Positions 4,642-34,741 are shown, numbered from the stretch's first letter. The stretch is DNA of 64,000 nucleotides from Vampirovibrionales bacterium (GCA_044346175.1 JBIIZQ010000005.1:20818-84817), one strand, 5' to 3'. Translations and numbers: made by a program. The notes: generated by a model not told the origin, from the letters alone.

Positions 4642-4770
4642 GGGATAACCCTAGGGCTATGAGGGTCTGTCTTTGAGAGTGCCAATGTCATCCTGCCCTC
4701 TATAACAAGACACATGACAACTTGATACGCATTCGTTTACACTGGAGCCATATCGTTTAAATGATAGCCC

Positions 4771-6979: not shown

Positions 6980-8014
6980 TTAAGAGTGACTCTCTAAACG
7001 AGGGTTACTTGCCCAGCCCAGTTTTTTACGGAGCAGGTCGTAAAATTCAGAAGCCTGACCTGAAAACCGCACTAACGATAAACTTGTACTTGCCGTTGTC
7101 ACATGAATCGCTTCATTGGGTTGAATACTAAAGAGTTCCATACCGTCCATGGTGACAACTAAAGGCGTTTGGTGCCGAGGTTCACACACGACGGTCAATA
7201 CAACACTGGCGGGAATAACAATAGGCTTGGCGGAAAGGGAATGCGGACAAATAGGGGTGAGTACTACCGCTGAAAGTTCAGGGCTTAATACGGGACCTCC
7301 TGCCGCAAGGCTATACGCCGTAGAGCCACTGGGCGTAGAAATAATCAATCCATCCGCATCGTAAGTTGCAAGGGGTTTATTATCAAGAAGTACGGATAAC
7401 CGAGAAAGCTGAGAGGCTGTACCACTTTTAACCACAACATCGTTAATCGCAAAATGATTCCCAAGCTGGAGCATCATACGAGACTCTAGCTCGTACTCGC
7501 CTCGGCAAAGTCGTCGGATAGCCTCGGGGATACGTTCTTTTTCAATACGAGTTAAAAAGCCTAAATGCCCTGTGTTAATGCCTACCATGGGTACTTGTAA
7601 ATAAGCAAGACGTTGGGCTGCACGTAAAAAAGTACCATCGCCCCCTAGGACAATGATGAGGTCAAAGCGAATGTCTGGTAGACCCTCTTGAGACCATGCC
7701 ACTAACGCAGAGGTGCTATGATGTACGGCTTTGAGAGGCTGGCTGCGGTCAAGGCGCTGATGGGTCACTTGTGTTGACACAACCTCAATGCCTTCTCGTG
7801 TGAGCAAGTGGGTTACAAGAGAGGCTAAACGAGCTTGTTCGGCTTCATCGGCAATGGTTTGACTCGCTGCCCCCTGATGCGTTACAAGTAAGACGTGCTT
7901 TATTAAGCCCTGAGGCACCGATAAACCAGACTCAGAACGTATCTCCGAGGTATCCATTGCTTCAAAATCCATCGCACAAACCTGACAATGCCTTACGCTA
8001 ACCCAAAGGCACAA
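6980..8014 (-). CDS. nadK: NAD+ kinase
   Basis: GGDGTFL motif and DGLIISTPSGSTAYSLAAGGP motif. It overlaps panC by 17 nt at its 5' end. Confidence 0.85.
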   Translation of the reverse strand: MCLWVSVRHCQVCAMDFEAMDTSEIRSESGLSVPQGLIKHVLLVTHQGAASQTIADEAEQARLASLVTHLLTREGIEVVSTQVTHQRLDRSQPLKAVHHSTSALVAWSQEGLPDIRFDLIIVLGGDGTFLRAAQRLAYLQVPMVGINTGHLGFLTRIEKERIPEAIRRLCRGEYELESRMMLQLGNHFAINDVVVKSGTASQLSRLSVLLDNKPLATYDADGLIISTPSGSTAYSLAAGGPVLSPELSAVVLTPICPHSLSAKPIVIPASVVLTVVCEPRHQTPLVVTMDGMELFSIQPNEAIHVTTASTSLSLVRFSGQASEFYDLLRKKLGWASNPRLESHS

Positions 8015-10485: not shown

Positions 10486-12468
10486 ATGTCCTACGGTTTT
10501 TTCTCATTGTTACTTAAAATAGTATTCGTGGCTTTGTTAGTAATCCCCTTGGTGGGCATCATCGCAATGATGCTTGTTTGTATAGAATTACTCGTTTTAG
10601 GGTATCTAACAGTTACACTGATTAGAATATGCTCTTGGATTAAGCGCGCAGGGGGAAAACTGGTTTCCGACATTTGGTCACTTTGGGTAGATATTCATCC
10701 TTTCAAGAAAGAATTTTGGAATGGGCATTCCTTTAGCTTGCTATTCCATACATGCCATGATGTCCTGATGAAAAACTGGCTTTCGGATAACGCCCTAGTA
10801 GACATACTGGAAATGTTGGCTGACCGTTTTGCCTCTTTCTTTATGCGTATTATGACTATCGTATGGGATATGCTGAAAGTTGGTTTACTCGTACTGATGC
10901 CTTCTATCATTCTAGTTCTTACAGTGCCAAGCTTTAGAAACAAACCCCAGATAGAGTCGGTTCTTCAAGCGTGTAGCAATAACGCTCTAATACAGGATTT
11001 GTTTTACAAAGCCAAAAAAAACGAAAACGATTCTTCCAAATCCCAAATTGATTTCCAGAAGCTTGCCGAATTTATTAGAAACAAACCCCAGATAGAGTCG
11101 GTTCTTCAAGCGTGTAGCAATAACGCTCTAATACAGGATTTGTTTTACGAAGACAAAAAAAACGAAAACGATTCTTCCAAATCCCAAATTGATTTCCAGA
11201 AGCTTGCCGAATTTATTGGAAAACTTACCGTTCTTTTTGCAGCCTTAACCTTGATATTTAACTACTACAAGCACCGTAATGATGAAGCCAAAAACCTTAT
11301 TAAAGACTGGCTTCATACCTCTGAAGGAAAGCTCATTTGTGATGTGCTTGAAAATGAACTTTCAGTGATTGAACACCCTTTTCATAAACAAGACAAAGAT
11401 AAAACTGACTTCTTAGTAGATTGGAGCTATACAGGGCCTGCAACACTCATTATTCAAAGTAAAACCGATCCAAAGTTTAAGGATTTATCTTTAACGTTTG
11501 CACAGTGGTGGCTAAATGCTTACAACCTGATTGAAAAAGATGACTCCAAAGACCGCTCCTATGCTGATGTTTTAAGCAAAGCCATAAGACCATTTAGCCT
11601 ATGTCTGACACAAAACGAAGCATGCAAGGAACGCAAGGAATGCCAAGAATGCAAAAGCATCACAACATTAAAAGACTTACTAGAGGTTTGTAAAACCATT
11701 GCGGAACAAAAGGGAAACGGCATTTTTATACGTACGATGCAGGGCTATCCCGAACTATTAAAAGGTTTAGAACATGAGGTAAGGGAGCAACATTTCTTTA
11801 ACGACATTCTTTCGCCAGACCTTTTAAATAAAACGCCTGAGCAATTGCTGGTGTCTCCTACGACCCTTATCACCTATACTTATTACTTCTTATCAAGACG
11901 ATATCTATCAGTTATCAATGCTTTTTACAATGCTATTGCGGATAAAAAAGTAAACTTGAGTTATGCAGAAAAGCAACTCATTTTCGCTTTTGATACCTTT
12001 TTTCAAAGCTTACGTAAGGTGGCACTGAGCATCAAACAACGCAACGTGACGTATGACGATGTAGAACCCACCGTATGGTATTGGCTTGACCGTATTGAGT
12101 ATCTCATTGTAGAAGGTAGACTTAAAGACCCTAAATACGAATACTACTCTTTCGTTGCCCATTATATTATAAGAGACTACCCTGAGATTTTTGAACTCCT
12201 TGCACGTCGACATCTTGATTGGCAAATCAGCTGGCGTAAGCCTCGGTATCGAACCTTAAAGCAACAAAAACATCGTGAAGCTTACAATGCTGTGATTAAA
12301 AAGATGATTTCAGACAATGAAAAAGCAATGAAAAAAGCTACAGAAACCCCCTACGAACCTTTAAAATTCTATGAAGACCTCGCCATTGAGCTTTCTGAAC
12401 TCAAACGAATCCAACTCCTCAAAAAGAGTCTTTACGTGAGGATGAAATGCGAAAGCTTAAAGGAGTAG
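10486..12468 (+). CDS. Hypothetical membrane protein with a bilobed N-terminal hydrophobic domain, an internal 47-aa tandem duplication and a K/E/N-rich C-terminus (effector-like)
   Basis: The gene is distinctly AT-rich compared with its flanks. There is an N-terminal ~45-aa bilobed hydrophobic segment and a second TM segment. No recognisable catalytic domain. Confidence 0.5.
   Translation: MSYGFFSLLLKIVFVALLVIPLVGIIAMMLVCIELLVLGYLTVTLIRICSWIKRAGGKLVSDIWSLWVDIHPFKKEFWNGHSFSLLFHTCHDVLMKNWLSDNALVDILEMLADRFASFFMRIMTIVWDMLKVGLLVLMPSIILVLTVPSFRNKPQIESVLQACSNNALIQDLFYKAKKNENDSSKSQIDFQKLAEFIRNKPQIESVLQACSNNALIQDLFYEDKKNENDSSKSQIDFQKLAEFIGKLTVLFAALTLIFNYYKHRNDEAKNLIKDWLHTSEGKLICDVLENELSVIEHPFHKQDKDKTDFLVDWSYTGPATLIIQSKTDPKFKDLSLTFAQWWLNAYNLIEKDDSKDRSYADVLSKAIRPFSLCLTQNEACKERKECQECKSITTLKDLLEVCKTIAEQKGNGIFIRTMQGYPELLKGLEHEVREQHFFNDILSPDLLNKTPEQLLVSPTTLITYTYYFLSRRYLSVINAFYNAIADKKVNLSYAEKQLIFAFDTFFQSLRKVALSIKQRNVTYDDVEPTVWYWLDRIEYLIVEGRLKDPKYEYYSFVAHYIIRDYPEIFELLARRHLDWQISWRKPRYRTLKQQKHREAYNAVIKKMISDNEKAMKKATETPYEPLKFYEDLAIELSELKRIQLLKKSLYVRMKCESLKE
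10936..11217 (+). repeat. Intragenic near-perfect tandem duplication (2 x 141 bp, 47 aa each)
   Basis: agaaacaaaccccagatagagtcggttcttcaagcgtgtagcaataacgctctaatacaggatttgtttta... is repeated head-to-tail with only 3-4 substitutions (K->E, A->D). Confidence 0.9.
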
Positions 12469-12603: not shown

Positions 12604-14478
12604 ATGATGATGACTCTGTCTCTTTCTTCGATTAAGCGATTCTTGATTGGTGAACCCCTCCGTACCAAGTTTGCCAAACATCAAAAAGTCAATGTCCCCA
12701 TGGGGCTGGCCATTTTTGCTGCCGATGCACTGTCATCCTCGGCATACGCTACGGATGAAGTTCTCATTGCCTTAAACGTGATGTTGCCTGGCGTGGCTGC
12801 TTCAGCCGTGATTCAGCAACTTGCCATGCCTGTGGCGGTTGCGATTGTATGGCTTATTTTATTAGTCGTTATTTCGTATCAGCAGGTCATTCGTGCGTAC
12901 CCTTCAGGTGGGGGGTCTTATATTGTTTCAAGAAGCAATTTAGGCGAAGGACTGAGCCTGGTAGCGGGTTCTGCACTACTCATTGATTATGTTCTGACCG
13001 TATCGGTGAGTATTTGTGCTGGTGTTGGTGCGATGGTCTCTGCGGGATGGATACCCCATGAACTCCAAGTCCCTGTTGCGGTTGGGGCGGATGTTCTCAT
13101 TTTAGGGATGAACCTCCGAGGGCTTAAAGAATCTGCTTCTGTGTTTTTGCTACCCTCTTTTTTGTTTATCGGTGCCATGGCGTTCCTGCTCATTTCTGCA
13201 CTGTATCAAATGTTCACAGGCTCTTTGCATATTTTGCATCCTGAACCCGTTGCCCAACAAGTGGCAGGGTCGGGGCTTGGATTGTTCCTCGCTTGTAAGC
13301 TGTTTTTTAATGGCTTCTCACACGGTTGTGCAGGCTTAACAGGGATTGAGGCTGTTTCAAATGGTGTGAATGCCTTCAAAGAACCCGCCTCTAAAAACGC
13401 TAACGTAACGATGATGTGGATGGGTACCATTCTGGCGGCTATCTTTATTGGCATGACGTATTTTGCAGTCAAAATTGGCGTAGTACCTATAGAAGGTAAA
13501 AACGTGGTTTCCCAGTTGGCAACCGCTGTGTTTGTAGGACAGCCCATCTTGTTCAACATTGTGATGTTTGCAGTCATGCTGATTCTGATTCTAGCGGCTA
13601 ACACTGCGTACTCTGACTTCCCAAGGGTGTCTTCATTCTTGGCAGACGATGGCTTTTTACCGCGCCAACTCATGAGTATCGGCGACCGCCTAGTGTTTAG
13701 TAATGGGATTATTATGCTGGGCATCATTTCGATGCTCCTCATTATTTTCTTCAAAGGCGACACCCATGCCTTGATACCCCTTTACTCGGTGGGTGTATTT
13801 ATTTGTTTTACCCTCACACAATTGGGCTTAGTGCGGCACCACCTGCGGGAAAGAGAAAAAGGATGGCAGCTGGGGATGTTAATCAATGGCATGGGGGCTG
13901 TGATTACAGGGATGGTGCTTGTTGTGTTGGCGGTTGAAAAGTTCCTTGAGGGTGCTTGGCTTGTATTTATCGCCATACCGTTGCTTATTTATATGTTTAA
14001 GTGTATTAAAAATCATTACAAATCAGTGGGGAGACAGCTTGCACTCCCTGAGGCAACCCATTGTCCTGTGAAGGTTGAACACACCGTCTTGGTGCTAGTG
14101 GCTTCTTTGAACCGTGGAACGATTGCCGCCTTGGAATATGCAAAGTCTATCAGTGAAAGAGTTGAAGCGGTTCACGTTGAGCTTAAACCTGAAGCCACAC
14201 AACGTTTACGCCATATCTGGGATGATTGGGGATGCGGACTCCCTTTAACCATTCTTAAATCGCCTTACCGTACTCTGGTGAATCCTTTGATGGATTATAT
14301 CGATGAGGTAGAAGGACGATATGACCATGACCTTGTAACGATTGTGATTCCTGAGTTTGTCACCAAAAAAATGTGGCATAACATTCTTCATAACCAGACC
14401 GCTTTTTACTTGAAGGCTATCCTATCCCGTAAAAAAGGGAAAGTGGTTACGACCGTAAGGTATCATCTTGAAGAGTAA
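12604..14478 (+). CDS. kimA: KimA-family (APC superfamily) K+ transporter with a C-terminal regulatory domain
   Basis: The N-terminus (IKRFLIGEPLRT...ADALSSSAYATDEVL...AYPSGGGSYIVSRSNLGEGLSLVAGSALLIDYVLTVSVSICAG) closely follows the B. subtilis KimA/YdaO N-terminal pattern. 12 TM segments are followed by a ~150-aa cytoplasmic domain. Confidence 0.65.
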   Translation: MMMTLSLSSIKRFLIGEPLRTKFAKHQKVNVPMGLAIFAADALSSSAYATDEVLIALNVMLPGVAASAVIQQLAMPVAVAIVWLILLVVISYQQVIRAYPSGGGSYIVSRSNLGEGLSLVAGSALLIDYVLTVSVSICAGVGAMVSAGWIPHELQVPVAVGADVLILGMNLRGLKESASVFLLPSFLFIGAMAFLLISALYQMFTGSLHILHPEPVAQQVAGSGLGLFLACKLFFNGFSHGCAGLTGIEAVSNGVNAFKEPASKNANVTMMWMGTILAAIFIGMTYFAVKIGVVPIEGKNVVSQLATAVFVGQPILFNIVMFAVMLILILAANTAYSDFPRVSSFLADDGFLPRQLMSIGDRLVFSNGIIMLGIISMLLIIFFKGDTHALIPLYSVGVFICFTLTQLGLVRHHLREREKGWQLGMLINGMGAVITGMVLVVLAVEKFLEGAWLVFIAIPLLIYMFKCIKNHYKSVGRQLALPEATHCPVKVEHTVLVLVASLNRGTIAALEYAKSISERVEAVHVELKPEATQRLRHIWDDWGCGLPLTILKSPYRTLVNPLMDYIDEVEGRYDHDLVTIVIPEFVTKKMWHNILHNQTAFYLKAILSRKKGKVVTTVRYHLEE

Positions 14479-14838: not shown

Positions 14839-15717
14839 GTGTTTTCTAATACGCTCCTGTCTTCAGCCTGCATACCTTGCCAAACACCTAAGGTGACGGT
14901 ACCTCGTACGGTAAGCCCTACGGCTTTACAGCGAGGTAAGAGTCTTAATCGAGCAGATACCTTTAGCCAAGTATTGGCACAGCACTTGCCCCAGATGCGT
15001 CCTCAGGAGGTACGCCCTTCCGCCTTGACCTTGCCATGGCAAGAGGTTTCTCAAGAAACCCCTAAACAATCGCAACATCATGCCTTTAAAGGTTCATTGC
15101 ATCCCGCTTCTCATTTGCAATCTATTGAGAGTGAAAAAAATCAGTTTGCATTACAAACCACACGAGGGGATGTCTTTCAACGACGTTTTGGACAAAATCA
15201 AGAAACCCTCACAACACAAGTTCCCACGGCAATTAAACCCAACTTTATAGCGGGGCTGACCCATCAAAGTGGCTATGCACAACCACAGCCCCTTGCACTT
15301 AAAGAGACGGCTAAAGTGGGTTCAGATGTTTTAAAACAACAATGGACGCAGCAGGGTAAGCAGGTGATGGGTCGGTTACGGATGTTAGGAGGACAGCTCA
15401 AAGAGCAAACGCTTAATACCGTTGTGCAGTCTTGGCAAACGGTGACTTCTTCGACAGCTGGCAAAGCCCTTTTACTTCCCTTGCAGCCTAGTATTGCGGC
15501 ACTTTCAGTGGGCGGTACCGATATGAAGACCTCTTTAAAATCGACAAGTCTTACCACCACCCTAACGCCTTCAACCTTAGCGTATCAACCCAGTGCTGAT
15601 AATATGGGCGTTCATCTACAGCCTGGGCATCACCTCATTCAGCCTGAAACCGTTCATTACGCACAATCTTACGGACAATACCACGCCGTTGGGCATAAGC
15701 TCAATATTGTAGGGTAA
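14839..15717 (+). CDS. Hypothetical Q/T/S-rich protein
   Basis: An ORF with no recognisable motifs, located between the kimA-like gene and cdaA. Confidence 0.35.
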   Translation: MFSNTLLSSACIPCQTPKVTVPRTVSPTALQRGKSLNRADTFSQVLAQHLPQMRPQEVRPSALTLPWQEVSQETPKQSQHHAFKGSLHPASHLQSIESEKNQFALQTTRGDVFQRRFGQNQETLTTQVPTAIKPNFIAGLTHQSGYAQPQPLALKETAKVGSDVLKQQWTQQGKQVMGRLRMLGGQLKEQTLNTVVQSWQTVTSSTAGKALLLPLQPSIAALSVGGTDMKTSLKSTSLTTTLTPSTLAYQPSADNMGVHLQPGHHLIQPETVHYAQSYGQYHAVGHKLNIVG

Positions 15718-15792: not shown

Positions 15793-16767
15793 GTGCCTTG
15801 CTCCTTATCATGTTCTCTTGATGCTTTAAGTCCTAAAGAGTCCTTTATGCCTTTTGATGCCATGCTTGACCAGCCCCCAAGTCCTCACCTGCCAGGGGTT
15901 CATCTCTCTGAAACATGGATTGACCAGCTCATCCATGTCGTACTGAGTTATGTTGAGATTGGCTCCCTTGTACTTGTGTTTTTGTGGGTTTATTGGCGAT
16001 TCATTCGAGGCAACCAAGCCGAACCTCTACTGAGGGGGCTTTTACTCATTTTATTGGGGGTTATGGGGATATGGCTCCTTGCTAGGGCATTCCATTTTAC
16101 CCTTTGGGAGAGTCTTATCAGCTTAGGTACCCAACTTTTTTTAGTGGGTCTGATGATGATTTTTCAACCCGAGTTGAGGCGTATTCTGCTTTATATTGGG
16201 CGAACCTCTTGGCTACAAAAAGTGTTACAAAGTTTAGGTCTCGGGCTGGAGCAGGACCGAGAAATCGCCACGCTCAACGCTGAAGAAATGACACGTTTTT
16301 TACAACGTATGGGCGAAACGGTAAGGTATTTAAGTAAACGACAAATGGGTGCTTTAATGGTGATTGAGCCTATGAGCTTGAACCGTCATGAACTGGCCTA
16401 TCAAGATGAATTTTTAGAACAGGGGGTACTCCTCCATGCACGTCTTTCGGCTGAACTGCTCATTACCTTGTTTCACCCCAATACGCCTTTGCACGATGGT
16501 GCATGCCTCATTCGGGCAAGAGGTTCTAAAGTTGTGGTGGCAGGGGCATTACTCCCATTAACAGAAGACCCCCATTTAAGCTGGCAATACGGAACCCGAC
16601 ACCGTGCCGCTATAGGTCTTAGTGAAACCTCACCCTGTGCTTGTGTTGTTGTGAGTGAAGAAACAGGGATGGTTAGTTTTGTGCATGAAGGTAAAATCCA
16701 GCGCACCAAAACGATTGAAGAACTCAAACAGTACCTCAAACAATACCTTACCTCTTCAGGGACTTAG
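15793..16767 (+). CDS. cdaA: Diadenylate cyclase CdaA (c-di-AMP synthase), membrane-anchored
   Basis: Three N-terminal TM helices followed by a DAC domain with HDGACLI (DGA motif) and GTRHRAAIGLSETSPCACVVVSEETGMVS (RHR motif). The true start is probably the internal Met MPFDAML. Confidence 0.8.
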   Translation: MPCSLSCSLDALSPKESFMPFDAMLDQPPSPHLPGVHLSETWIDQLIHVVLSYVEIGSLVLVFLWVYWRFIRGNQAEPLLRGLLLILLGVMGIWLLARAFHFTLWESLISLGTQLFLVGLMMIFQPELRRILLYIGRTSWLQKVLQSLGLGLEQDREIATLNAEEMTRFLQRMGETVRYLSKRQMGALMVIEPMSLNRHELAYQDEFLEQGVLLHARLSAELLITLFHPNTPLHDGACLIRARGSKVVVAGALLPLTEDPHLSWQYGTRHRAAIGLSETSPCACVVVSEETGMVSFVHEGKIQRTKTIEELKQYLKQYLTSSGT

Positions 16768-16768
16768 C

Positions 16769-18820
16769 CTAAGCCGTGACACGCTGAGGTGCTGAAGGGG
16801 TCATGCTCGGTAAATGGCTCGAAAAATGGGGTGGCTCTACCGTTAATACGCCCAGTTTTTCTCGTTGGCGACGTTTTTCTAACGAATTCGTCACCCAAAT
16901 ACCTAATTGTGGTTCAAGGAAAGCAAGTAAGGCGACAGAAATGGCAGCACTCGTTAGGGTGACACGATTTTGTGTATGTTTTACACGGGCGACTAAGTCG
17001 GGCAAGTGCTTGATTTGAGACTCACTTAACCGTAAGGCATGTTGCATCATGGGGCGTGTAATTTCTTGGGCATCTCGGCGTACACTGTAATCAGCCGTTT
17101 TAAACAGGAGTTGATGGCCTACTTGCTTGCTTTGCTCAAAAGTCATTAAGCCATCCCGTACCAAGGTGTGCATAAGCTGTTTGTTTGCAAGACGGCTCAA
17201 ACCCTGGCGTAGCCACTGGGTTCCCCAAGTGAGGGTAGGGAATCCTAATATATTGTCACGCAGTAACGTTTCTCTAAAGTCGGCATCGTTTCTACTTTCC
17301 ATGAGACGAATGCCACATAAAGCCCCATACGTGAACTCCATTTGACGTAAGGTTGTAAAAGGAAAAGTACGCTCAAAGGACAGAAACTCTTTCATGCCCT
17401 TGGCAAAATCTAAACCCAAACGTCCCGCTTTCTGAGTCACAAAGTGTCGACCCGCTACAGCACCCAAAAAGCCGAAAAAGCCTGCACTTACAAGAGCAGG
17501 TGTCAAGTTGCCTTGTTTCAAACTTTCACGGATGTAGGGAAACCATTTCACGTGAGTTTTAGGGGTTGGCGTATTAGATGCTTGGACTGGTGCTTCTTTG
17601 CTTGCTTGGGGTGTCTGTCCAAAACGAGTTTGAAAGGTAGGCACTTGAGAAGAAGCGTAAGAGGCGTTGGTCTTTTGTGTTGACACTGCAAAAGGTTGGG
17701 TTGCACCCATAAAGGGGGTTGCCACGACCATGGCGGGTACTTTACTCAGCAGTCCAGAGGACGTATTGGAGATGGGGTGAGTACTAGCGGGGGTTGGATG
17801 ACTTAGGGGGGTATTTTTACCAAGGGATTTTGCTAATTTATCGTAGTGTTCCGAGATGGCACGGGTAGCAGGGTTGGTATCAGCCTGTGGCCCATAGCGT
17901 TTTACCATCATTTGACGTATCCAGTGAGGAATCATCAAAGAAATGCTAAAAGCAGCCAATGTACCAAGCCCCTGCCAAGGCTGATGTTTGAGTGTGGTTT
18001 CCGCCATATGTGCCAGTTTACTATCCCACGCATGCCCCTCATGGCGTGCCATGCGGGTAAGGTCATGCAAAATATTGGGTAGCGTGGTTTCAACAGGGTG
18101 TCCCGTGTGTGGGTGTTTTAAATGAATATCCAAACTAGGGAGGCGTAAAGCAGCCGCAAGGTTTTGTGCTTCATGCGTGTAGGGGTCTTGAGTTTTGCCT
18201 AAAAGGCTATCAAAGGCATGCCGAAAATGTCCGCCTGTTTGTTGTGCAGTGGTGGTTTCCCACTTGACCAGTTTATCCACAGCTTTTTGCAATGATGTTT
18301 GACCTAAAAGCCTTTCCTGTGAGGTCTCTTGGGTGATGGTGGAGGCTTGCGGGGACTGCACAAGCTTTTGTAATGTATTGAAAAAATCTTGTTGATGACG
18401 ACTTTTCTCGGCAATGGTTCTATACACCTCAAGACTATCAGCATCAATATTGTGTTGTATTAAGCCACCATGACGTTTGTCCAGATGTTTTCCTACAACG
18501 TAAGTTGCAAGTAGACCAGGTAAAAAGGTATCAGTAAAATCTGCCGCTGTATCTCGGATGAACATTTCCTCGCCAGCTTGTTTGTTTTTCTCACCCGTGA
18601 TGTCAAAGGTACGGTATTGTTGCTGTACAAACCTTGGTACGGTGTAACCAAAGGTCTGTTCCACAGCGTAACGTACGCCTTCTCCTCGGTTATATAAGCT
18701 ATCGGCAACCCCGTTCATCAGTTGCGTTGCAACAGAAGCACCCCCTGAAAAGCGTGCTGTTTGGGGTACACGATGCTTTGTTGGCGTAGGCAATGACAAG
18801 GCAGAAGAGGAAACGAGCAT
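16769..18820 (-). CDS. Large hypothetical protein (683 aa)
   Basis: A long ORF with a central S/T/P/Q-rich low-complexity region. No recognised motifs. Confidence 0.4.
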   Translation of the reverse strand: MLVSSSALSLPTPTKHRVPQTARFSGGASVATQLMNGVADSLYNRGEGVRYAVEQTFGYTVPRFVQQQYRTFDITGEKNKQAGEEMFIRDTAADFTDTFLPGLLATYVVGKHLDKRHGGLIQHNIDADSLEVYRTIAEKSRHQQDFFNTLQKLVQSPQASTITQETSQERLLGQTSLQKAVDKLVKWETTTAQQTGGHFRHAFDSLLGKTQDPYTHEAQNLAAALRLPSLDIHLKHPHTGHPVETTLPNILHDLTRMARHEGHAWDSKLAHMAETTLKHQPWQGLGTLAAFSISLMIPHWIRQMMVKRYGPQADTNPATRAISEHYDKLAKSLGKNTPLSHPTPASTHPISNTSSGLLSKVPAMVVATPFMGATQPFAVSTQKTNASYASSQVPTFQTRFGQTPQASKEAPVQASNTPTPKTHVKWFPYIRESLKQGNLTPALVSAGFFGFLGAVAGRHFVTQKAGRLGLDFAKGMKEFLSFERTFPFTTLRQMEFTYGALCGIRLMESRNDADFRETLLRDNILGFPTLTWGTQWLRQGLSRLANKQLMHTLVRDGLMTFEQSKQVGHQLLFKTADYSVRRDAQEITRPMMQHALRLSESQIKHLPDLVARVKHTQNRVTLTSAAISVALLAFLEPQLGIWVTNSLEKRRQREKLGVLTVEPPHFSSHLPSMTPSAPQRVTA

Positions 18821-19974
18821 AAAGCGTAAGGCAACTTCAATAACAGGGAAAACAAGGAGGAAACGGTGACCTAAGTAAGCCTTAAAGACTCAAGGACCAA
18901 TGGAGTCTCCCATGTAGAAGCAGCCATGCAATAATGCGTATGTTTTAAAACCTGTGTTGTGACAATCAAGAGAGTCGTAAGGGGATGGTGTTTTAATGAA
19001 ACCACCATACATAAACCCACTGTTAAACATTTTACTTTCATGGAGAACCAGTGTTTGCATTAAAACTTAAAGCTGAATGGGGTTTAAGGTTAAAGATTTC
19101 GTGCAGTAACGAGAGATTGATGCACGTCGTGATACGATAAAACACCCTCAACAAAAAGCAGTGCGTCCAAAACCCAAAACACATGCTAGGGTTCAGGGCA
19201 GCATGTGAGTTGAAAGACTCACATTGACTGCGATACACTTATTCAAAAATCCAAAAAAGCAACATGACACAATCTTGTAGCACTCCACGGAGGTTATGAG
19301 GGTCTTGAAACCTCAACATACCACTTCCATGACAGTTGTTGGGTATTAACCTCAACAACCAAGTATCTCTGTGCCTTAAGCAGGATACTTTCGGCATCAC
19401 TTCCCTTTTTGTGAAGTTACTTTAGAGATGGCACTCTAAGAAGAAACCAGGCAGTTTCAAAGGCAACCGCACATACTTTTGAAGGATGCACCTCTACAGG
19501 GCAATGTTATTATGCGTGAAATAAACCCACGATACAAGCCCTTATCTCTCATAAAGAAAGCATGTAACGCAAAGATGTAACATCCTGTGAATGTCGGTCT
19601 GGTGTCGTCCTGTAACGAAATGTTACAATCGGGCTTTTTTGTCAAAAGCAATCTTATTTCAAAGGGTAAGTTTGATGAAACTTTGTTAAAATAACAGGAT
19701 GCTCTTCTACAGTGTTAATAATGTAATAATGTTGCATTAAATGTATCTTTTTCATATACTCTATTTGTATAGAGTACTTGAGATAGATATTTTAAGCTCT
19801 GTTTTAGGCTGATACGTTCTGGTTTCGGTAACTGCCTGAGTGATGATATTCGTTTTAAATGATGTGTGTGTGCTACCCATTTGCTTCATCACAATGTTGA
19901 AACCTAGCCATTCTTTTTTATTCTCTAGATTGTTCACGTATTTTAAAATTGTTTCATAAGGTCTTACAAAGGAT

Positions 19975-21171
19975 ATGATGATGCGTCTCTCTTCTTTAGC
20001 TTCACCTATGGCGTTTAGTGCCACAAACCGCTTAAGTCGTTCTCAGCAAACACCTAACACGCAAGTACAAAGCCGATTTGGCGATGCAGGATGCCCTGTC
20101 TGTATTTCTCGTGCTGCACTGAGTGATACGGTCGAAAAGCTTGTTAAAGGCGATGTTGTGATGCCCTCATCCGTCATGGCGAATGTATTGAAAAACGTAG
20201 ACCCCAGCATCCAACGTCCTGAGCAAGTACAGGCACGTATTCCGCACTTTAAAGCAACACGCTTAGCCCCCATTCGTTCAAGTGATGTACCTGCACTGAT
20301 GCTTACCACCTTAGGGCTTCCTGACCCTTTGAAAAAGGATGTCATTAGAGGCATGAAGCACTATGAAAATGTCACTCAGTATCCTGATGTCCCTGTACAG
20401 GCTGTCGCAGTGCCTCAAGATGAAGCGGTTGCTGCCTTTACAAATCGTAAAGCAGGTACCGATGATGCACACCAGGCTCAAATGTTGGCAAAATGGCTTA
20501 ACCCTGACACTCAAAAAGCCAATACCCACCGGTTTTTTGTAGACCTTGTGCCTGTGCCTTTAAAGCAAACGCTTGAAGCCAAGCAACATGCCGATTTGCC
20601 TCAAACGCTTACCGTGGTTCATCATACCGTGAGTGGTGAGGGTCGTATCAATGGCGAGGTTAAAAAGATTCCCGGTGGTTTGACGACCCTTGGTGTACTT
20701 TCCATGAAAAAAACAGGTCATGACCACAGCCAGTTGTACATATTCCATAACAAAGAACTCCCTGGTATGGAAGGGTTTGGACAGCCTGCCGCAGGGTTGA
20801 TGAATGTGATTGCCATGGTTGCAAACCGTGAAGAAGGCTTCAAACAGGTACAATCTTTATCGGTTCGTGTGCCTAAAGACCAACCTGACCTTAAACACTA
20901 CATCCACAAACTTGCACAAAAAGTAGATACGCCTTTAAAAAAAGAAGTGAAGGATGGCGGAGAAGTCCTAACATTTGAGCATGTTTCAGGGTTTAAAGGA
21001 CACATGGACAAGCTTGAAGAAGCCTACAATGAAATCTATAAGCACCATCAAAAAGACCTTGGTACGAATACGCTTGCGCCTGCTACCTTCCAGTTTTTAC
21101 ATGCCATTCGTCCCTCTCAGTTTCTTTCTAAGGATGCTGCAAATGCCAATGCTTTTGCATTAAAGCCTTAA
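19975..21171 (+). CDS. Hypothetical protein (398 aa)
   Basis: A long ORF following a 1.15-kb AT-rich non-coding gap. No recognised motifs. Confidence 0.4.
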   Translation: MMMRLSSLASPMAFSATNRLSRSQQTPNTQVQSRFGDAGCPVCISRAALSDTVEKLVKGDVVMPSSVMANVLKNVDPSIQRPEQVQARIPHFKATRLAPIRSSDVPALMLTTLGLPDPLKKDVIRGMKHYENVTQYPDVPVQAVAVPQDEAVAAFTNRKAGTDDAHQAQMLAKWLNPDTQKANTHRFFVDLVPVPLKQTLEAKQHADLPQTLTVVHHTVSGEGRINGEVKKIPGGLTTLGVLSMKKTGHDHSQLYIFHNKELPGMEGFGQPAAGLMNVIAMVANREEGFKQVQSLSVRVPKDQPDLKHYIHKLAQKVDTPLKKEVKDGGEVLTFEHVSGFKGHMDKLEEAYNEIYKHHQKDLGTNTLAPATFQFLHAIRPSQFLSKDAANANAFALKP

Positions 21172-21252
21172 GGTAACGCTTGGGGTTTCGTCACGAGTAT
21201 TTCAAAATCGTGGCGAAACCTCAAGCCCTCTGTATGTCCCCTGTTTTCATTT

Positions 21253-22803
21253 GTGCCATTGATTCTCTGTCTGCCTGTCTGTGGGAAAGCTTTTATGACA
21301 CTTGCTGTCACCTCTCATATGCCCTCCTATGCCACAGTACAAGCCCCACGAGGTGCATTTCCTCAGCGGGTTGATAATCTTAATAGCACACCCCTTGCCC
21401 TTGATAGTTTCTTTTCACGTACCGACTCTGCCCTTTACGCCTACCCTAAACAAAATAATCCTATCGCTCCTCACTCTGATGTATTTACCTCTGTCACGTC
21501 AATAACAAGCGATGTAACCAAAGTGCCTGTTTGGTCGCAGACACTTTACGGAAGTGGTGGTATCAATGCAGCAGGACGTACTATGTCTGAAGCCTCTCGG
21601 AGAGATGCCACACGTCATAATCCCTTCAGGCTAGAGTCCCATCCACCACAAAAGCCTTCACCGTCTTCTTCTCCAGATACCCTAGAAGAACAAAAAAATT
21701 ACGTACCCGTTACCGCACTTCAAGTTTCGGCACCCCTCTTGGAACTGCGTACTCAAAGTGAGCATGCCACCTCCAAGCGAGAGAATACAAAAACGCTTTT
21801 CCATTTTGATTTACCTGTGAGTGGCATTCTGGTTGCTTACCTAACACGTTATTATCATTTGAATCATCATCCAACACTCAACACGTGTCGCCAAGTGGGT
21901 CAATTGCTTGCAAAAGGACAGAAGCTCCAAAAACTTGTCCCGAAAACATTACAAGAAGCGGATGCATCTCTCAGTTCTCCCATACGCTACGACCTCCTTG
22001 CTTCTCCTGAAGCACTCTATGATAAAAACAAAAGTATCAGGCGTACACTCCTTCACCAAGCAGATACCTTATTCAAGGACCGTCCTGCACTGCTCCAAGC
22101 GTATAAAGAACTCATTGCTAGCCATGCAAACCAAATTGCAGCTTCGAGTAAAGAGGAACAACAAAGACAAGCACGCAAGGGGATTCATCAGTTACCTGGT
22201 AAACTTTTAACGCATGAGCTTCCCCAAACGTGGGAACCCAATAAAAGCCTTAAGCTAGCCTATACGCAAGCGGCTGAAAGTTTAGAACATAACCGAAAAG
22301 CAACTTGGCAAACACTCCATGAAGCCTTAGAAAAAACCCTTCAAGTACAAGCGGAACATACTCACTATGCAAAGGCATGGCATGCTTTAAATAAAGAGCG
22401 GCAAGGGATGCTTAACCTCATGGAGAGCGATGCTCCCCAAGCACAGGGCTTTAAACTAGGGTTCAGTCCAAAGCTTTACCCTTTTAAGCAGTATGCTAAA
22501 GAGCTTGGTTTATCACCTGATACTTACAGTAAACAAGCTGCTTGGCGACCGATGGTAGCCCTTCATCAGTTTTTAGCAGATAGCCATAAGAGTATGGCGC
22601 AAAAGCTGCATCAAGCAGGGCAAATTCAACACTTGGGTACTCGTTGGGCAGGCTTTGCCGAGACGTTTCGTCTTTCACAGAAGCGTGCCGTTCAGTTTGC
22701 GAATGTGGAGTCTTGGATTATGGGCGTTGCTACAGTGGGCATGATTACCCTAGAAAGACGGGTTCATCAGGCGAGTGAACGTCGTGACCAAGCACAAGCC
22801 TAA
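21253..22803 (+). CDS. Hypothetical protein (516 aa)
   Basis: A long ORF with no recognised motifs, co-directional with 19975..21171. Confidence 0.4.
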   Translation: MPLILCLPVCGKAFMTLAVTSHMPSYATVQAPRGAFPQRVDNLNSTPLALDSFFSRTDSALYAYPKQNNPIAPHSDVFTSVTSITSDVTKVPVWSQTLYGSGGINAAGRTMSEASRRDATRHNPFRLESHPPQKPSPSSSPDTLEEQKNYVPVTALQVSAPLLELRTQSEHATSKRENTKTLFHFDLPVSGILVAYLTRYYHLNHHPTLNTCRQVGQLLAKGQKLQKLVPKTLQEADASLSSPIRYDLLASPEALYDKNKSIRRTLLHQADTLFKDRPALLQAYKELIASHANQIAASSKEEQQRQARKGIHQLPGKLLTHELPQTWEPNKSLKLAYTQAAESLEHNRKATWQTLHEALEKTLQVQAEHTHYAKAWHALNKERQGMLNLMESDAPQAQGFKLGFSPKLYPFKQYAKELGLSPDTYSKQAAWRPMVALHQFLADSHKSMAQKLHQAGQIQHLGTRWAGFAETFRLSQKRAVQFANVESWIMGVATVGMITLERRVHQASERRDQAQA

Positions 22804-24374
22804 AAAGCCATGACAGGTGCCATAATGGCATCCTTCATGCCATGGATGATTTTTTTGTCCTTCGGGCATCCCGTTGCTAACACACCCGCTAGGGTTGTTT
22901 TTTCTTCAACAGGATGGACAATATAATAGGGGCAGAGTCTTACTCGTGCTTCAAATGGATAAGCTTGTAGTGTGTCTGTATTCAGGGCATGCCAAGGTAC
23001 AACCTGCGTGTTGTGATAAGGCTGTAAAATATGAGGGGTTTGGTGAAAATCATCCAGAGCCTTCTGAAGGGCTTCAGCCCAACCCTGACTTGCGTGGTCA
23101 TGACCTATCACAACGCCTCTTGAACCCCAAGCTTGAGGCGAAAATCCAGAGGGTTTTATTACCCATTGCCGTGCTTTTTGACTTGCCGTTTTAAGCAAGT
23201 GCCAAGAGGCTAAGGGTTTACCCTGATAGACGAGTGTAGGCGTATACGCTGCAGAGGGTGGTAAAGGCGTGGGGTCAAGCACCCAAGTGGGTGGGATGAT
23301 AGCATCTAAAAGCGTGATAGCACAAGACGATTGTAGTAAGGGGTACTTGGTACGCATTTTTTGCCAAGAAAGCTCCCAAAAAGGCCGTAGTGCTGGATGA
23401 TGCCACAAAGCCGCCATCATTTTTTCCTCTAGGTGAGGTTTAATAGGTGGGCTACACACCAGCCATTGCTTTTTAATCGCATGAACGATTAACTCGGCGT
23501 TAGGTAACGAGGTGACATCAAAGCATTCAAAAAAACGATACAGGACATCTACACGGTGTACTTTGCCCTGAAAATCAAAATATAGCCCATCAGCAAGGGG
23601 AAAGAGGTCTTTAGGGTGCAGGGCTATTACGCCTGATTGCTCAAACCCGCCTAGGGCTTGCGTAATGAAGTACTCCCATTCTGGTGCATAATCCTTCGCT
23701 TCATCAGAAATGCACACCACAATATGAGGAAAAGGCTGTCCAAACGTTGTAATAGCTTGGCGACGTTTTTCGGAAAGCCCTGTTTGAACCAAAGCTCGAA
23801 AAGCCTGAAGCCATGTGGTGGCTAAATCCTTAGAGGCCGGTGGTAGATAGGGGTTACCATCCATGTCATGGTAATAGGACTGAAGTGCCTGCGTAAAACC
23901 CAACCCGCCAGGAATGGCATCCACTTCACAAAGGGTTAAGGTGTCCCCCTCACCCCAAAGTAAATCAGGACGAATGACCAAGGGGATGTGGCTTTTTTGT
24001 CGTTTGTGGCGTGCAAGGTCAATCACCATTTGTGGTTTTCCTTGGTCAAGCCACTGAGAAACCCAAAGTGGTACCTGCTCAGGGTGGGTTTGTTTCCAGC
24101 TTTGTTCGTAAAGGGTATCCAATGCGGTCAGCCACCAATGTAGTGCGTCTCCTATGGCTGCTAGCTTTGAAGTAATGGCTTCAGGGAGTGGTAAAGGATA
24201 GGCTGCTAACTTCCAAGAGGGTGTATGGGCTACGACCTCTTGGAAGTTAGCCTGCCCCTGATACAACCCCTCCCAAGTAGGGAGTGCTGTCGGTAAGGGG
24301 ACGGGTCGTATGATTGGCTCATCACTAAGCGTATGACTCAAAGCGGTGCTGTAAGAAGCAGAGGAAAGTGTCAT
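22800..24374 (-). CDS. Hypothetical protein (524 aa), possibly an ATP-grasp-like or circularly permuted ligase fold (speculative)
   Basis: A long ORF. The C-terminal half has weak resemblance to ATP-grasp-like families. No firm motif. Confidence 0.35.
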   Translation of the reverse strand: MTLSSASYSTALSHTLSDEPIIRPVPLPTALPTWEGLYQGQANFQEVVAHTPSWKLAAYPLPLPEAITSKLAAIGDALHWWLTALDTLYEQSWKQTHPEQVPLWVSQWLDQGKPQMVIDLARHKRQKSHIPLVIRPDLLWGEGDTLTLCEVDAIPGGLGFTQALQSYYHDMDGNPYLPPASKDLATTWLQAFRALVQTGLSEKRRQAITTFGQPFPHIVVCISDEAKDYAPEWEYFITQALGGFEQSGVIALHPKDLFPLADGLYFDFQGKVHRVDVLYRFFECFDVTSLPNAELIVHAIKKQWLVCSPPIKPHLEEKMMAALWHHPALRPFWELSWQKMRTKYPLLQSSCAITLLDAIIPPTWVLDPTPLPPSAAYTPTLVYQGKPLASWHLLKTASQKARQWVIKPSGFSPQAWGSRGVVIGHDHASQGWAEALQKALDDFHQTPHILQPYHNTQVVPWHALNTDTLQAYPFEARVRLCPYYIVHPVEEKTTLAGVLATGCPKDKKIIHGMKDAIMAPVMAF

Positions 24375-24400: not shown

Positions 24401-25621
24401 TTAGGAAGATACGAGGCTGGCATCTTGAGCAACAGCAAGTGCCGCCGTAACGTAGGCCTCTAATTTCGGTAACACGTTTGCCATGACTTCAGCACGAGTC
24501 CCTTTTACGCTACAACCAGCTGCCATGGTGTGTCCACCACCTTGGTAGTAATGTTCTGCAAAGTGTGAAACATCGATGCGTGGTGTGAGGCTTCTAAAGC
24601 TTATTTTGGTAAGGTTAGGCGTATTCTCTTTAAAAAAGGCACACGCTTGCACCCCTTTTAATTGACGAAGCACATCAATCCCACCTTCAGTATGTTCTTC
24701 ACACGCATTTAAACTTTCTAAATCTTCGGGTGAAACCCAGCTATGGGCAATCGCCCCTTGGCATATCAATTCAGTACGCTCAATGACCCGCCCCATGAGT
24801 TTAAGTTGGCACAAAGGGGTTTCTTCGTAAATATCACGATACAATAAATGCCCCTCGGCACCCGCTTCGGTTAAACGCTTTGCTAATTCAAACACCTCAG
24901 GGGTACTATTGGGGTATTTAAAATTGCCTGTGTCGGTCATTAAGGCGGCGTAAAGATTCACTGCAATTTCTCGAGTAAAGGGTACCTTCATGGCATCAAT
25001 TAAATGTGCCACGACCTGCCCAGTGGCACTGAGTTCAACATCTACCAGATTCAGCGTTCCAAAACGCTCGTTACTTACATGATGGTCTAAGTTGACTCGA
25101 ATAGGTGCTTTGTCAAAAATCTGTCCATTAAACCCTAAACGTGCTTTGGAGCCACAATCAAAGCTTAAGCTCATGTCATAAGTATTCAAGTAGTGTGATT
25201 GATGCAACTCAGATTGCAATACGACATCAATCCCAGGTAGTCTGTGGTATATATCGGGCTTTTTGCCTTCCATTGCCACATGCAATACCTCAATATGAGG
25301 GTAATGCGTGATTAACGCACTTCTTAATGCCAGCATAGACCCCAGCGTATCCCCATCAGGATTGACATGCACCGTCATGAATACTGTACGTGCCTTTCCA
25401 AGCAAGTCAGCCACCTGCTGATAATCTGCCAAAGTAGGTGTAGGGTGCAAGGAATGGGAAGATGAATGGGAGTGGGGGTGCGTTATCATGCGAGTGAGTG
25501 AGAGAGAAGGATGCGAGCGTAAAAGAACATTCGCACAGTGTGACAAAAAAGAATGGACCCTAATGGTTAAGCCTATACACGAATAAAAACAGGGTGCCAA
25601 GATAAAGTGTGAGTTCGACAC
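24401..25621 (-). CDS. DHH/DHHA1 phosphoesterase (NrnA-like nanoRNase/pAp phosphatase; candidate c-di-AMP/pApA phosphodiesterase)
   Basis: DHH motifs HVNPDGDTLGS and NLDHHVSN, and the DHHA1 GGGH motif (YYQGGGHTMAAG). The N-terminal ~60 aa (His/Ser-rich) is probably not translated. Confidence 0.75.
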   Translation of the reverse strand: MSNSHFILAPCFYSCIGLTIRVHSFLSHCANVLLRSHPSLSLTRMITHPHSHSSSHSLHPTPTLADYQQVADLLGKARTVFMTVHVNPDGDTLGSMLALRSALITHYPHIEVLHVAMEGKKPDIYHRLPGIDVVLQSELHQSHYLNTYDMSLSFDCGSKARLGFNGQIFDKAPIRVNLDHHVSNERFGTLNLVDVELSATGQVVAHLIDAMKVPFTREIAVNLYAALMTDTGNFKYPNSTPEVFELAKRLTEAGAEGHLLYRDIYEETPLCQLKLMGRVIERTELICQGAIAHSWVSPEDLESLNACEEHTEGGIDVLRQLKGVQACAFFKENTPNLTKISFRSLTPRIDVSHFAEHYYQGGGHTMAAGCSVKGTRAEVMANVLPKLEAYVTAALAVAQDASLVSS

Positions 25622-32229: not shown

Positions 32230-33348
32230 TTAAACGGGGTTTGAAGGCTTATCGAATGACTTGATGGTAATTTTGCCAAGCCATACAAGATACACAATGG
32301 TGCCTACTGCCAGTACCCCAAAGGCAATCAGTAAATCCCACTGAGGGTTTACTGCAGCCTTTTCAGGTGAAAAGAACGAGGACACTGTGTAATCACGTAA
32401 CAAATGGCGCATCCATGTCATGCTAAAGACCACACCCAAGGCTGTGAACAACCCAGTACGGAACCATGCGAATGACTGACGAGACCAAGCCAAAGCCATT
32501 GAAATAACAGACACTACACCCAACACGTTGGAGAAGTTAAAGAGATGTGTTCCCATTTTATCGCCACCCAAAAAGTTTTGGCGAATTGGTTCAGGAAGGG
32601 CAAATAAGAACCAAAACCCAACCACGATTTGTAAAAGGGTTACGCCCAAGTACCAAGCAGAACCTTGACGAATCAACCAGCCTGCATACTCAGCTTGACG
32701 CTTCTCCCAGTAAAGCCCCATGGTGCCAATGCCAAGACCCGTCACGGCAAATGCGGCTAAGGCAAAGTGCAGGTAACGAGACCACAGCGTAGGCTCTAAC
32801 AAGTTTAAGGCTAACCCTGTTTTACCTTCTACAATAAAGTCTTGCCAAGTGTCAGGCTTTAACATAAGGGTCATGTTATTGGTGAAGAAGAAGCCAATAA
32901 CTGCAAAAATAGCAAACACACCCATCAACACATAAGGCACCCAAGCACCCAAGGCTTTTTCTTTAAACTTCGCAATATAGGTAGCGTAGTAAGCCACCAG
33001 TAGCATGGGGATGATGGCAATCCAAGGGACACCCATCAAAATAGAAGAGGTGTAGTACAAAGGACCATACACCAATTGCAAAAAGAGCAGGGGAACAATC
33101 CCTTGAGTAATCGCCAAAGAAATCGCAAAGGGTAATGAAAATACCATGCTATGTCCTAAACGACTGGCATGAGCATTCTCTTGGTGTTTCCCAGCAAGCA
33201 GGTATAAGGCGGATACTAAAGCACCACCAAGTGCAAGGTTCATAGGTACCACGTGGGTAAAAAATCCTACAACCAGTAAGGTTTTTAACAGACCCACAGG
33301 GGCTGGAAATGGAATAGGTTGCAGGTCAGGAAGAATCATGTTTGGCAC
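32230..33348 (-). CDS. Polytopic membrane protein, paralog of the N-terminal part of 29166..30533 (bc-complex-associated)
   Basis: The shared block FTHVVPMNLALGGALVSALYL corresponds to ILHVFVSHFAVGGGAFFALTEW in ORF 29166..30533. About 10 TM helices. It is the first gene of the apparent operon. Confidence 0.5.
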   Translation of the reverse strand: MPNMILPDLQPIPFPAPVGLLKTLLVVGFFTHVVPMNLALGGALVSALYLLAGKHQENAHASRLGHSMVFSLPFAISLAITQGIVPLLFLQLVYGPLYYTSSILMGVPWIAIIPMLLVAYYATYIAKFKEKALGAWVPYVLMGVFAIFAVIGFFFTNNMTLMLKPDTWQDFIVEGKTGLALNLLEPTLWSRYLHFALAAFAVTGLGIGTMGLYWEKRQAEYAGWLIRQGSAWYLGVTLLQIVVGFWFLFALPEPIRQNFLGGDKMGTHLFNFSNVLGVVSVISMALAWSRQSFAWFRTGLFTALGVVFSMTWMRHLLRDYTVSSFFSPEKAAVNPQWDLLIAFGVLAVGTIVYLVWLGKITIKSFDKPSNPV

Positions 33349-33852: not shown

Positions 33853-34500
33853 CTATTGCCATAAACCGCTTGAAATGGGGTTGCCAACAGAGCCTGTCCA
33901 AGGTTGCCCAAGGAATGCTGGTGGTAAACCACGTGTTGGGTTATCGGGTCCGTAATTTAAAGGTAAGCCTAAGCCTGCCGCATAGCCTAGCAAAGCGGGG
34001 AGGTCACGGGAAGCCGCAGCGGGTGCAAAATAAAATTTAGGGTCAATTCCCCTTTGAGGAAAGCTACTTGAGAGGGTTCCAGGTTTACCAAAATCGGCAT
34101 AACTATAGCCCGCTGGGTTGGAGGTGGGTCCAAAGCCTGTATTGAGCATATAGGGGGAAGTGCTTTGTTGCCAAGCGGGTTGTTGATAGGCGGCTATTTG
34201 CTGATTCAGGCTATTACGGTCAAGTTGTAGGCCAGGAATGGCATTCTGAAAATTACCAGGGGGTGAAAAACCAGGTAATCTTGAAGATAAGGTACTGTTT
34301 TGATTTCCATTAGGCGACCCTACGAGAAAGCTTTGAGGACTTGTCCAAGTAGGACTTGCGGAGGGCTGTTGGGCTTGTCCACCAAGTTGGACACTACCAC
34401 CAGAGATATTTACAAGTGATTGACCATTCTGAGTGATATTGACCCCTTGAGGCGTAATATCAATATGGATGGGGCCTGCGACGGAAATACTTGTCATCAT
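33853..34500 (-). CDS. Low-complexity G/P/Q/N/S-rich protein (probable secreted or surface protein)
   Basis: The ORF track gives 33853..34701. The likely real start is the internal MMTSISVAGP at 34498-34500, which is preceded by an AT-rich promoter region. There are no catalytic motifs. Confidence 0.4.
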   Translation of the reverse strand: MMTSISVAGPIHIDITPQGVNITQNGQSLVNISGGSVQLGGQAQQPSASPTWTSPQSFLVGSPNGNQNSTLSSRLPGFSPPGNFQNAIPGLQLDRNSLNQQIAAYQQPAWQQSTSPYMLNTGFGPTSNPAGYSYADFGKPGTLSSSFPQRGIDPKFYFAPAAASRDLPALLGYAAGLGLPLNYGPDNPTRGLPPAFLGQPWTGSVGNPISSGLWQ

Positions 34501-34741
34501 CACAAAAGGTACTTTCTGGAAGGGACTTAGAGTGTTTTGGTGGATTATGTTTGTTTCTTGATTTAATAAAAACAATTTATATGAGATAATTGCCTCCACC
34601 CCCTTTGATGCACACCTGTATATCTCGTGTATAGTTAAATATGGGCATGTTATGGGCATGTCATTGAAGTGGTTAAAAGCTTTAGGAAACAGCCCAATCA
34701 CCCGCTAAATCATGACCCCTCAGTAAAACGAAACAATCCTA

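Follow-up and report, generated by a model that had tools for sequence, protein, structure and literature searches.

A lysine riboswitch with its own putative promoter precedes an orphan gene for a probable membrane protein in a Vampirovibrionales genome

What, if anything, holds together four long open reading frames (ORFs) that surround more than a kilobase of AT-rich DNA without a gene? The question is raised by positions 16769–24374 of a 64,000-nucleotide stretch of Vampirovibrionales bacterium DNA (GCA_044346175.1, JBIIZQ010000005.1:20818-84817), which is referred to here, at its full length, as the window. The block contains ORFs of 683 amino acids (aa; 16769–18820, minus strand), 398 aa (19975–21171, plus strand), 516 aa (21253–22803, plus strand) and 524 aa (22800–24374, minus strand), lies between cdaA (15793–16767, plus strand, encoding a DAC domain) and a DHH/DHHA1 gene (24401–25621, minus strand), and includes low-complexity segments, all of which the first-pass annotation had described correctly. 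That annotation regarded the four products as motif-less orphans and possible effectors, toxins, surface proteins or parts of a conflict system, arranged around a non-coding region with a candidate operator palindrome. The proteins do lack any match in scans of Pfam and NCBIfam (E <= 0.1), PADLOC (E <= 0.01) and PHROGs, but the 524-aa protein is no orphan, and the main feature of the gap is a lysine riboswitch with its own putative promoter, not an operator palindrome.

The gap (18821–19974) measures 1,154 bp and is AT-rich, as had been noted, with a GC content of 0.384 against 0.458 in the window and 0.336 in its 19505–19974 portion, but it is not the featureless non-coding DNA that it was taken for. 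A covariance-model match to the lysine riboswitch aptamer (L-box, Rfam RF00168) occupies 19270–19504 on the minus strand and covers the full model (positions 1–182), with 74.7 bits (gathering score 30) and an E-value of 1e-17. It is the sole cis-regulatory RNA found by an Rfam scan of the whole window, and the same scan gave no other RNA family in the gap at E <= 1. The aptamer points toward the 683-aa ORF, whose ATG lies 449 nucleotides (nt) downstream. Alignment of the window leader and nine homologous leaders with MAFFT, followed by RNAalifold, independently recovered the five-helix junction P1–P5, with compensatory (double-sided) changes in 38 of the 51 aptamer pairs across the ten leaders and with the junction motifs AGAGGnGC, AAAGGG, GCCGAA, CUGUC and GGAGnGCUA invariant in all of them. 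By its sequence and predicted structure, the window aptamer is a bona fide canonical L-box.

Ahead of the aptamer lies a candidate sigma-70-type promoter on the minus strand (19509–19537), with a -35 element TTGTAT at 19537–19532, a 17-nt spacer and a -10 element CATAAT at 19514–19509. L003, the locus of the closest relative, has the same two hexamers at the same spacing, while the spacer sequence has diverged, and because of this phylogenetic footprint we infer that TTGTAT-17-CATAAT acts as the promoter of the riboswitch transcript, which would start just before P1. A TAnAAT-like box is found about 8–12 nt ahead of helix P1 in the majority of the other loci.

The pairing of this riboswitch with the 683-aa gene family is recurrent. 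Loci of relatives were obtained by protein look-up (L001, L002, L003, L004/L005, L006 and L007), from GTDB genomes (L008–L011, of which L008 duplicates L003 and L009 duplicates L007) and from metagenomes of the Joint Genome Institute (L012). RF00168 is present directly upstream of the 683-aa homologue, on the same strand, in ten of ten independent loci including the window, and scores 58–94 bits in those of the relatives (L001, L002, L003/L008, L004/L005, L006, L007/L009, L010, L011 and L012). The flanking genes vary among loci and include those for a methyltransferase, a lipocalin, DnaE, YbjQ, a rhodanese and ATP-binding cassette (ABC) exporters; even in L003 a DDAH/ADI-like gene stands in place of the window's cdaA. 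The window's 683-aa gene is convergent with cdaA and is therefore monocistronic, and in six of seven loci the gene that comes after the 683-aa-family gene is on the opposite strand. Since the flanks differ and an opposite-strand gene so regularly comes next, the conserved unit is the riboswitch plus this single gene. The closest genome is the only one to share the four-gene order, and with it the convergent/divergent arrangement, whereas in all other loci retrieved the riboswitch and the 683-aa gene travel together with other flanks. That a lysine riboswitch controls the 683-aa gene as one unit is, in our view, nearly certain.

The association has a boundary within the wider superfamily. An exhaustive profile search retrieved 216 relatives, about 21 of which are close, full-length and equipped with an N-terminal LYDRGEGVRYAVEQT motif; the distant relatives start matching only after this motif, and the sole organism-named one among those checked is melainabacterial. 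Two distant paralogues (hmmsearch E ~1e-46) that lack LYDRGEGVRYAVEQT have no riboswitch in their genomic context, and the L-box link is therefore specific to the LYDRGEGVRYAVEQT-bearing clade. One distant riboswitch-less paralogue, in a Melainabacteria metagenome-assembled genome (MAG; L016, 3001–5091 and 5437–7382 region), lies right upstream of motA/motB-like stator genes.

What kind of protein does the riboswitch precede? Only 19 homologue clusters were found for it among 5.8 billion clusters, all from Vampirovibrionales-type or Melainabacteria assemblies, and its closest relative is the 725-aa protein of L003 (68% identity). Neither the protein nor its family profile has a Pfam, NCBIfam or PDB sequence match, ten distant superfamily members gave no real matches to Pfam, and there is no paralogue within the window. 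The family alignment is very strongly conserved at residues 41–113 and 481–535 and around 283–301, 439–457 and 621–645, and poorly conserved in the middle regions; an insert rich in S, T, P and Q (about 336–418) is limited to the window protein and its closest relatives. Family-averaged hydropathy outlines four conserved hydrophobic segments (95–113, 283–301, 439–457 and 625–643; mean Kyte–Doolittle values 1.26–1.62), with conserved acidic residues at or within such segments (D94, D97 and E636) and additional low-moment helices at 491–507 and 524–537. A fairly confident AlphaFold2 model built from a 19-sequence alignment (mean predicted local distance difference test, pLDDT, 75; predicted template modelling score, pTM, 0.71) is all-alpha, with four helices of 38–54 residues and a disordered insert. 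Foldseek matched this model to no solved fold (best E 0.8, TM-score 0.18), and an internal duplication was ruled out by hhalign of the N-terminal against the C-terminal half (probability 0.1%). Judged from hydropathy and the model, the 683-aa protein is probably an integral-membrane helical protein of an undescribed family.

A short motif of the type RFG / [RQK]F[GSQ]G is found repeatedly in local orphan proteins, in disordered N-terminal stretches or inserts, namely at residues 23 and 399 of the product of 16769–18820, residue 34 of that of 19975–21171 and residue 116 of that of 14839–15717, and it stands about 10–15 residues before the conserved domain in most members of the 683-aa family (alignment columns about 115–125). 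It was not taken as a meaningful signal, since six occurrences against 3.7 expected in the window proteome are not significant and may be chance.

Taken together, the best explanation of the locus, which we consider probable on balance, is a self-contained lysine-responsive unit encoding a new membrane protein, most likely a lysine transporter. On the minus strand, transcription would run from the promoter (19509–19537) through the aptamer (19270–19504) and a long leader into the 683-aa ORF (16769–18820), lysine occupancy of the aptamer would set the expression level of the 683-aa protein, and this protein would move lysine across the membrane. Judging from other L-box regulons, one would expect by default an uptake function that is turned off under ample lysine. 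Transport is the likeliest role because L-box regulons hold lysine genes, which in other phyla serve biosynthesis, transport and rarely catabolism (PMC5584792, PMC3766115), and because the product looks like a membrane protein; there is also precedent for interpreting uncharacterized single genes behind L-boxes as lysine transporters (PMC5584792). For the specific claim that the 683-aa product transports lysine we would put the chance at a little short of even. More tentative still is the broader proposal that the family represents structurally new lysine transporters or channels of non-photosynthetic, partly predatory cyanobacteria that are always under a lysine riboswitch.

Several observations weigh against the lysine-responsive transporter. 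In the window and L003, 449–546 nt separate the aptamer from the start codon, with no supported terminator, and the loci do not share a conserved expression platform. A pairwise alignment with L003 revealed no conserved sequence in the window's leader between aptamer and annotated ATG (18821–19269, minus strand; 449 nt). Long leaders are a feature of three loci, the others being L003 (546 nt, 4290–4835) and L001 (about 270 nt, 7714–7982), and those of the other loci measure 77–190 nt. Rho-dependent or RNase-dependent control of the long leaders is a possible mechanism. The ten loci examined were drawn from about 21 close clusters at 50% identity, in the window protein only two of the hydrophobic segments attain the hydropathy of classical transmembrane helices (>1.6), and the protein has neither similarity to a known transporter family or fold nor an internal repeat. 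Uptake would also not be obligatory, given that Vampirovibrio chlorellavorus is predicted to synthesize lysine (PMC4451040).

The remaining genes of the block have histories of their own. The 398-aa protein, divergent from the riboswitch gene, has one homologue among the 5.8 billion clusters (74% identity), in the Vampirovibrionales MAG JBJTUH01, which also holds the closest 683- and 524-aa homologues; Pfam, NCBIfam and PDB sequence searches gave no match for it, and its ORF is, on the sequence comparison, a real and constrained gene and a lineage-specific orphan. The fast-evolving 516-aa orphan is 42% identical to a syntenic 521-aa ORF of L003, the sole homologue compared, no database-wide search having been made. 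The N-terminal third of the two is barely alignable and a C-terminal hydrophobic helix (about 482–500) is conserved; again, no Pfam, NCBIfam or PDB sequence match was found. Both genes are lineage-specific orphans with a partly conserved upstream region of their own, from which they are divergently transcribed.

The 524-aa protein is of a different kind, with more than 1,092 homologues at about 40% identity across phyla, so that the description of the block as lineage-specific holds for the 683-, 398- and 516-aa proteins only. Its AlphaFold2 model (pLDDT 87, pTM 0.89) matches, over the whole chain, solved ATP-grasp ligases of the glutathione-synthetase/GspS/YgiC type, and the family alignment contains invariant K, R, D and E residues. 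Contrary to its earlier description as motif-less, the protein does carry an ATP-dependent ligase fold. It matches neither the Pfam families GSH_synth_ATP and GSP_synth nor NCBIfam, and its family profile finds no PDB sequence; the tie to ATP-grasp ligases is therefore remote and at the level of the fold, from which we predict that the protein is a broadly conserved ATP-grasp acid–amine ligase homologue. Its gene probably shares a transcript with the DHH gene, which lies upstream. The homologue of the 524-aa gene is directly followed by a lysine-2,3-aminomutase-like gene (Radical_SAM+LAM_C) in Nitrospira, in a MAG of the Firmicutes and in one of the Acidiferrobacteraceae (pairs at L013 5001–8180, L014 5001–7707 and L018 4001–6583), a gene pairing that suggests an uncharacterized lysine/beta-lysine ligation pathway. 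In the Nitrospira locus, an LPG_synthase_C-domain gene lies divergently upstream of the 524-aa homologue.

The palindrome proposed as an operator, TACTCTAT-ttgt-ATAGAGTA (= TACTCTATttgtATAGAGTA), does exist at 19757–19776, but it is not beyond chance, as inverted repeats of this kind (8-bp arms, spacer <=6 nt) turn up once or more in 14.6% of first-order Markov simulations of the gap. Nor is it conserved as a palindrome, five of its eight arm positions still pairing in the L003 alignment, and it was rejected as an operator. It lies about 250 nt upstream of the transcript of the riboswitch promoter and is therefore outside the riboswitch unit, with no possibility of serving as an operator within that transcript. 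A nearby block of 31 nt (19671–19701; minus-strand sequence CATCCTGTTATTTTAACAAAGTTTCATCAAA) shows 100% identity between the window and L003 amid otherwise diverged intergenic DNA; it occurs just once in the window and, among the other loci, only in L003/L008. Its plus strand contains TGTTAAAAT, an extended -10-like sequence, and the block may, as a lead, be a promoter or operator of the divergent 398-aa gene (398/516 pair).

How, then, do other readings of the riboswitch-controlled gene compare? Because some L-boxes use ON logic, an exporter stays a live alternative, in which the 683-aa protein would be a lysine exporter or detoxifier induced by excess lysine, like LysE and LysO. ON logic is ascribed to some lysine riboswitches in a passage of PMC2258182 that cites Rodionov 2003, relatives of the host are predicted lysine prototrophs feeding on prey contents (PMC4451040), and the acidic residues conserved in the hydrophobic segments recall LysO (PMC8498466). 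A U6 run follows the window aptamer by 11 nt, and the only hairpin able to precede it uses the 3′ strand of P1, as would be expected of an ON switch, but this hairpin does not exceed shuffled sequence in stability (z -0.44), and the closest relative lacks it. L004, and L004 alone, has a separate, strong terminator 62 nt downstream of the aptamer (-16.1 kcal/mol, z -3.9), which fits an OFF switch, the logic of most known L-boxes (PMC2258182). Several GC-richer loci among the ten offered no candidates for a hairpin followed by a U-run, and terminators and alternative pairings, when searched for ON or OFF logic across these loci, gave no consistent result. An induced exporter appears quite unlikely. 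The product might also be lysine-regulated and not transport lysine at all, acting as a membrane-anchored enzyme, an envelope or predation factor or a pore former. Its roughly four hydrophobic segments, large and poorly conserved soluble regions and disordered 336–418 insert are unlike the pattern of classical permeases with 10–14 transmembrane segments, no transporter fold matches it, and the wider riboswitch-less paralogous superfamily in Melainabacteria indicates that the scaffold is not intrinsically lysine-specific. Yet L-box regulons elsewhere are essentially devoted to lysine biosynthesis, transport and catabolism (PMC5584792, PMC3766115), family scans and the fold search detected neither a catalytic motif nor an enzyme-like fold, and the best-conserved parts are precisely the hydrophobic segments and adjoining polar helices, so that we hold a role outside transport to be unlikely and keep the lysine transporter as the preferred assignment.

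The interpretation with which the locus entered this study, a single lineage-specific module of four ORFs that has an effector, toxin, surface or conflict role and is built around a non-coding region with an operator palindrome, is largely refuted and strikes us as very improbable. All four genes are syntenic in the closest relative, three of them are lineage-restricted and low-complexity segments are present, but the synteny is confined to that one genome, at 42–74% identity, and the 683-aa family has other neighbours in the remaining loci that were retrieved together with their surrounding genes. The 524-aa gene is the homologue of a pan-bacterial ATP-grasp ligase, the palindrome falls within chance expectation and is not preserved as such, and the gap is accounted for by the riboswitch and promoters. 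A secreted, toxic or conflict-related role finds no supporting evidence in PADLOC, PHROGs or N-terminal hydropathy: the 683-, 398- and 524-aa proteins are without a hydrophobic signal-like segment, and that of the 516-aa ORF is found only in a non-conserved extension created by a GTG start. The absence of defence hallmarks, which the first-pass annotation had itself remarked on, holds for all four proteins, which have no PADLOC match at the stated cut-off and no PHROGs match. The region is a mosaic and not a four-gene system, and the other three genes are unrelated neighbours of the riboswitch gene.

Orphan genes are common all through this genome, and the flagged block is not exceptional. Among the recognizable products of the window are FlhA, FliH, a Rieske/cytochrome b complex, FtsH and alanyl-tRNA synthetase (AlaRS), and many of its ORFs have no family match. 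Further ORFs lacking a Pfam or NCBIfam match are located at 14839–15717 (plus), 10486–12468 (plus), 32230–33348 (minus), 33853–34701 (minus) and 41065–41874 (minus); the window's orphans include a Q/T-rich 292-aa ORF right upstream of cdaA and a 660-aa ORF. Within 13 kb lie cdaA, whose DAC domain is that of a cyclic di-AMP (c-di-AMP) synthase, the stand-alone DHH/DHHA1 phosphoesterase gene and a gene for a 624-aa AA_permease_2 protein (12604–14478, plus strand). The last of these has a long C-terminal extension and, we presume, resembles KimA-type K+ importers, and the three genes may form a c-di-AMP neighbourhood. At 45645–48665 (plus strand), a 1,006-aa glycosyltransferase-2/cellulose-synthase-like protein with a PilZ domain is BcsA-like and presumably under cyclic di-GMP control. 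The best homologues of the block proteins come from MAGs labelled Vampirovibrionales bacterium, Candidatus Melainabacteria and 'Cyanobacteria bacterium HKST-UBA03/04', and on account of these homologues the source of the window is, to judge by its proteins, a non-photosynthetic cyanobacterium of the Vampirovibrionales type.

For such a host, the riboswitch has consequences beyond the single locus. It assigns a candidate ligand to an otherwise unannotatable protein family and turns an orphan into a testable hypothesis, namely that lysine governs expression of the gene and that the product, with a new fold, transports lysine. The riboswitch class is also extended to Melainabacteria/Vampirovibrionia, a lineage whose gene regulation is almost unexplored. 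Should the broader proposal hold, no L-box regulon would have been described earlier from the cyanobacterial phylum. The L-box survey PMC5584792 makes no mention of cyanobacteria, riboswitches have been called rare in Cyanobacteria (PMC2258182), and our literature searches retrieved no report of a lysine riboswitch in Melainabacteria or cyanobacteria. Independently of the riboswitch, the pairing of the 524-aa ligase with a lysine-2,3-aminomutase-like enzyme marks an uncharacterized pathway that is probably related to lysine or beta-lysine.

Among known enzymes, the comparison for the 524-aa protein is with eukaryotic-type glutathione synthetase, glutathionylspermidine synthetase and Escherichia coli YgiC/YjfC, to which it is only 9–15% identical. 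Its family elsewhere adjoins a lysine-2,3-aminomutase-like radical SAM gene, a neighbour that, to our knowledge, has not been described for enzymes of the glutathione synthetase/GspS/YgiC type. For the 683-aa protein, neither profiles nor fold connect it with APC/LysP, NhaC/LysW, YvsH, ABC LysXY, LysE or LysO. LysE (PF01810) and LysO/YbjE are small-to-medium helical membrane proteins dedicated to lysine, with no sequence or fold similarity to it, and we know of no riboswitch control of either. LysO relies on conserved acidic residues within the membrane (PMC8498466), and the 683-aa family has conserved D94, D97 and E636 at or in hydrophobic segments.

Compared with the L-box regulons of Firmicutes, Gammaproteobacteria and Thermotogae (lysP, yvsH, lysW, lysXY and lysC/dap), the window unit has the same class of aptamer, with a full-length match and covariation, placed in the 5′ leader of a single gene right behind its own putative promoter, and it resembles the transporter branch of these regulons in that its product is probably a membrane protein (PMC5584792). 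It differs from them in its host, which belongs to the Vampirovibrionales/Melainabacteria, the non-photosynthetic Cyanobacteria, in a 683-aa product that stands outside the known transporter families by Pfam and NCBIfam, and in an unusually long leader of 449 nt without a recognizable expression platform. The RNA itself is an ordinary representative of an established riboswitch class, and what is new is the lineage in which it occurs and the protein family that it regulates.

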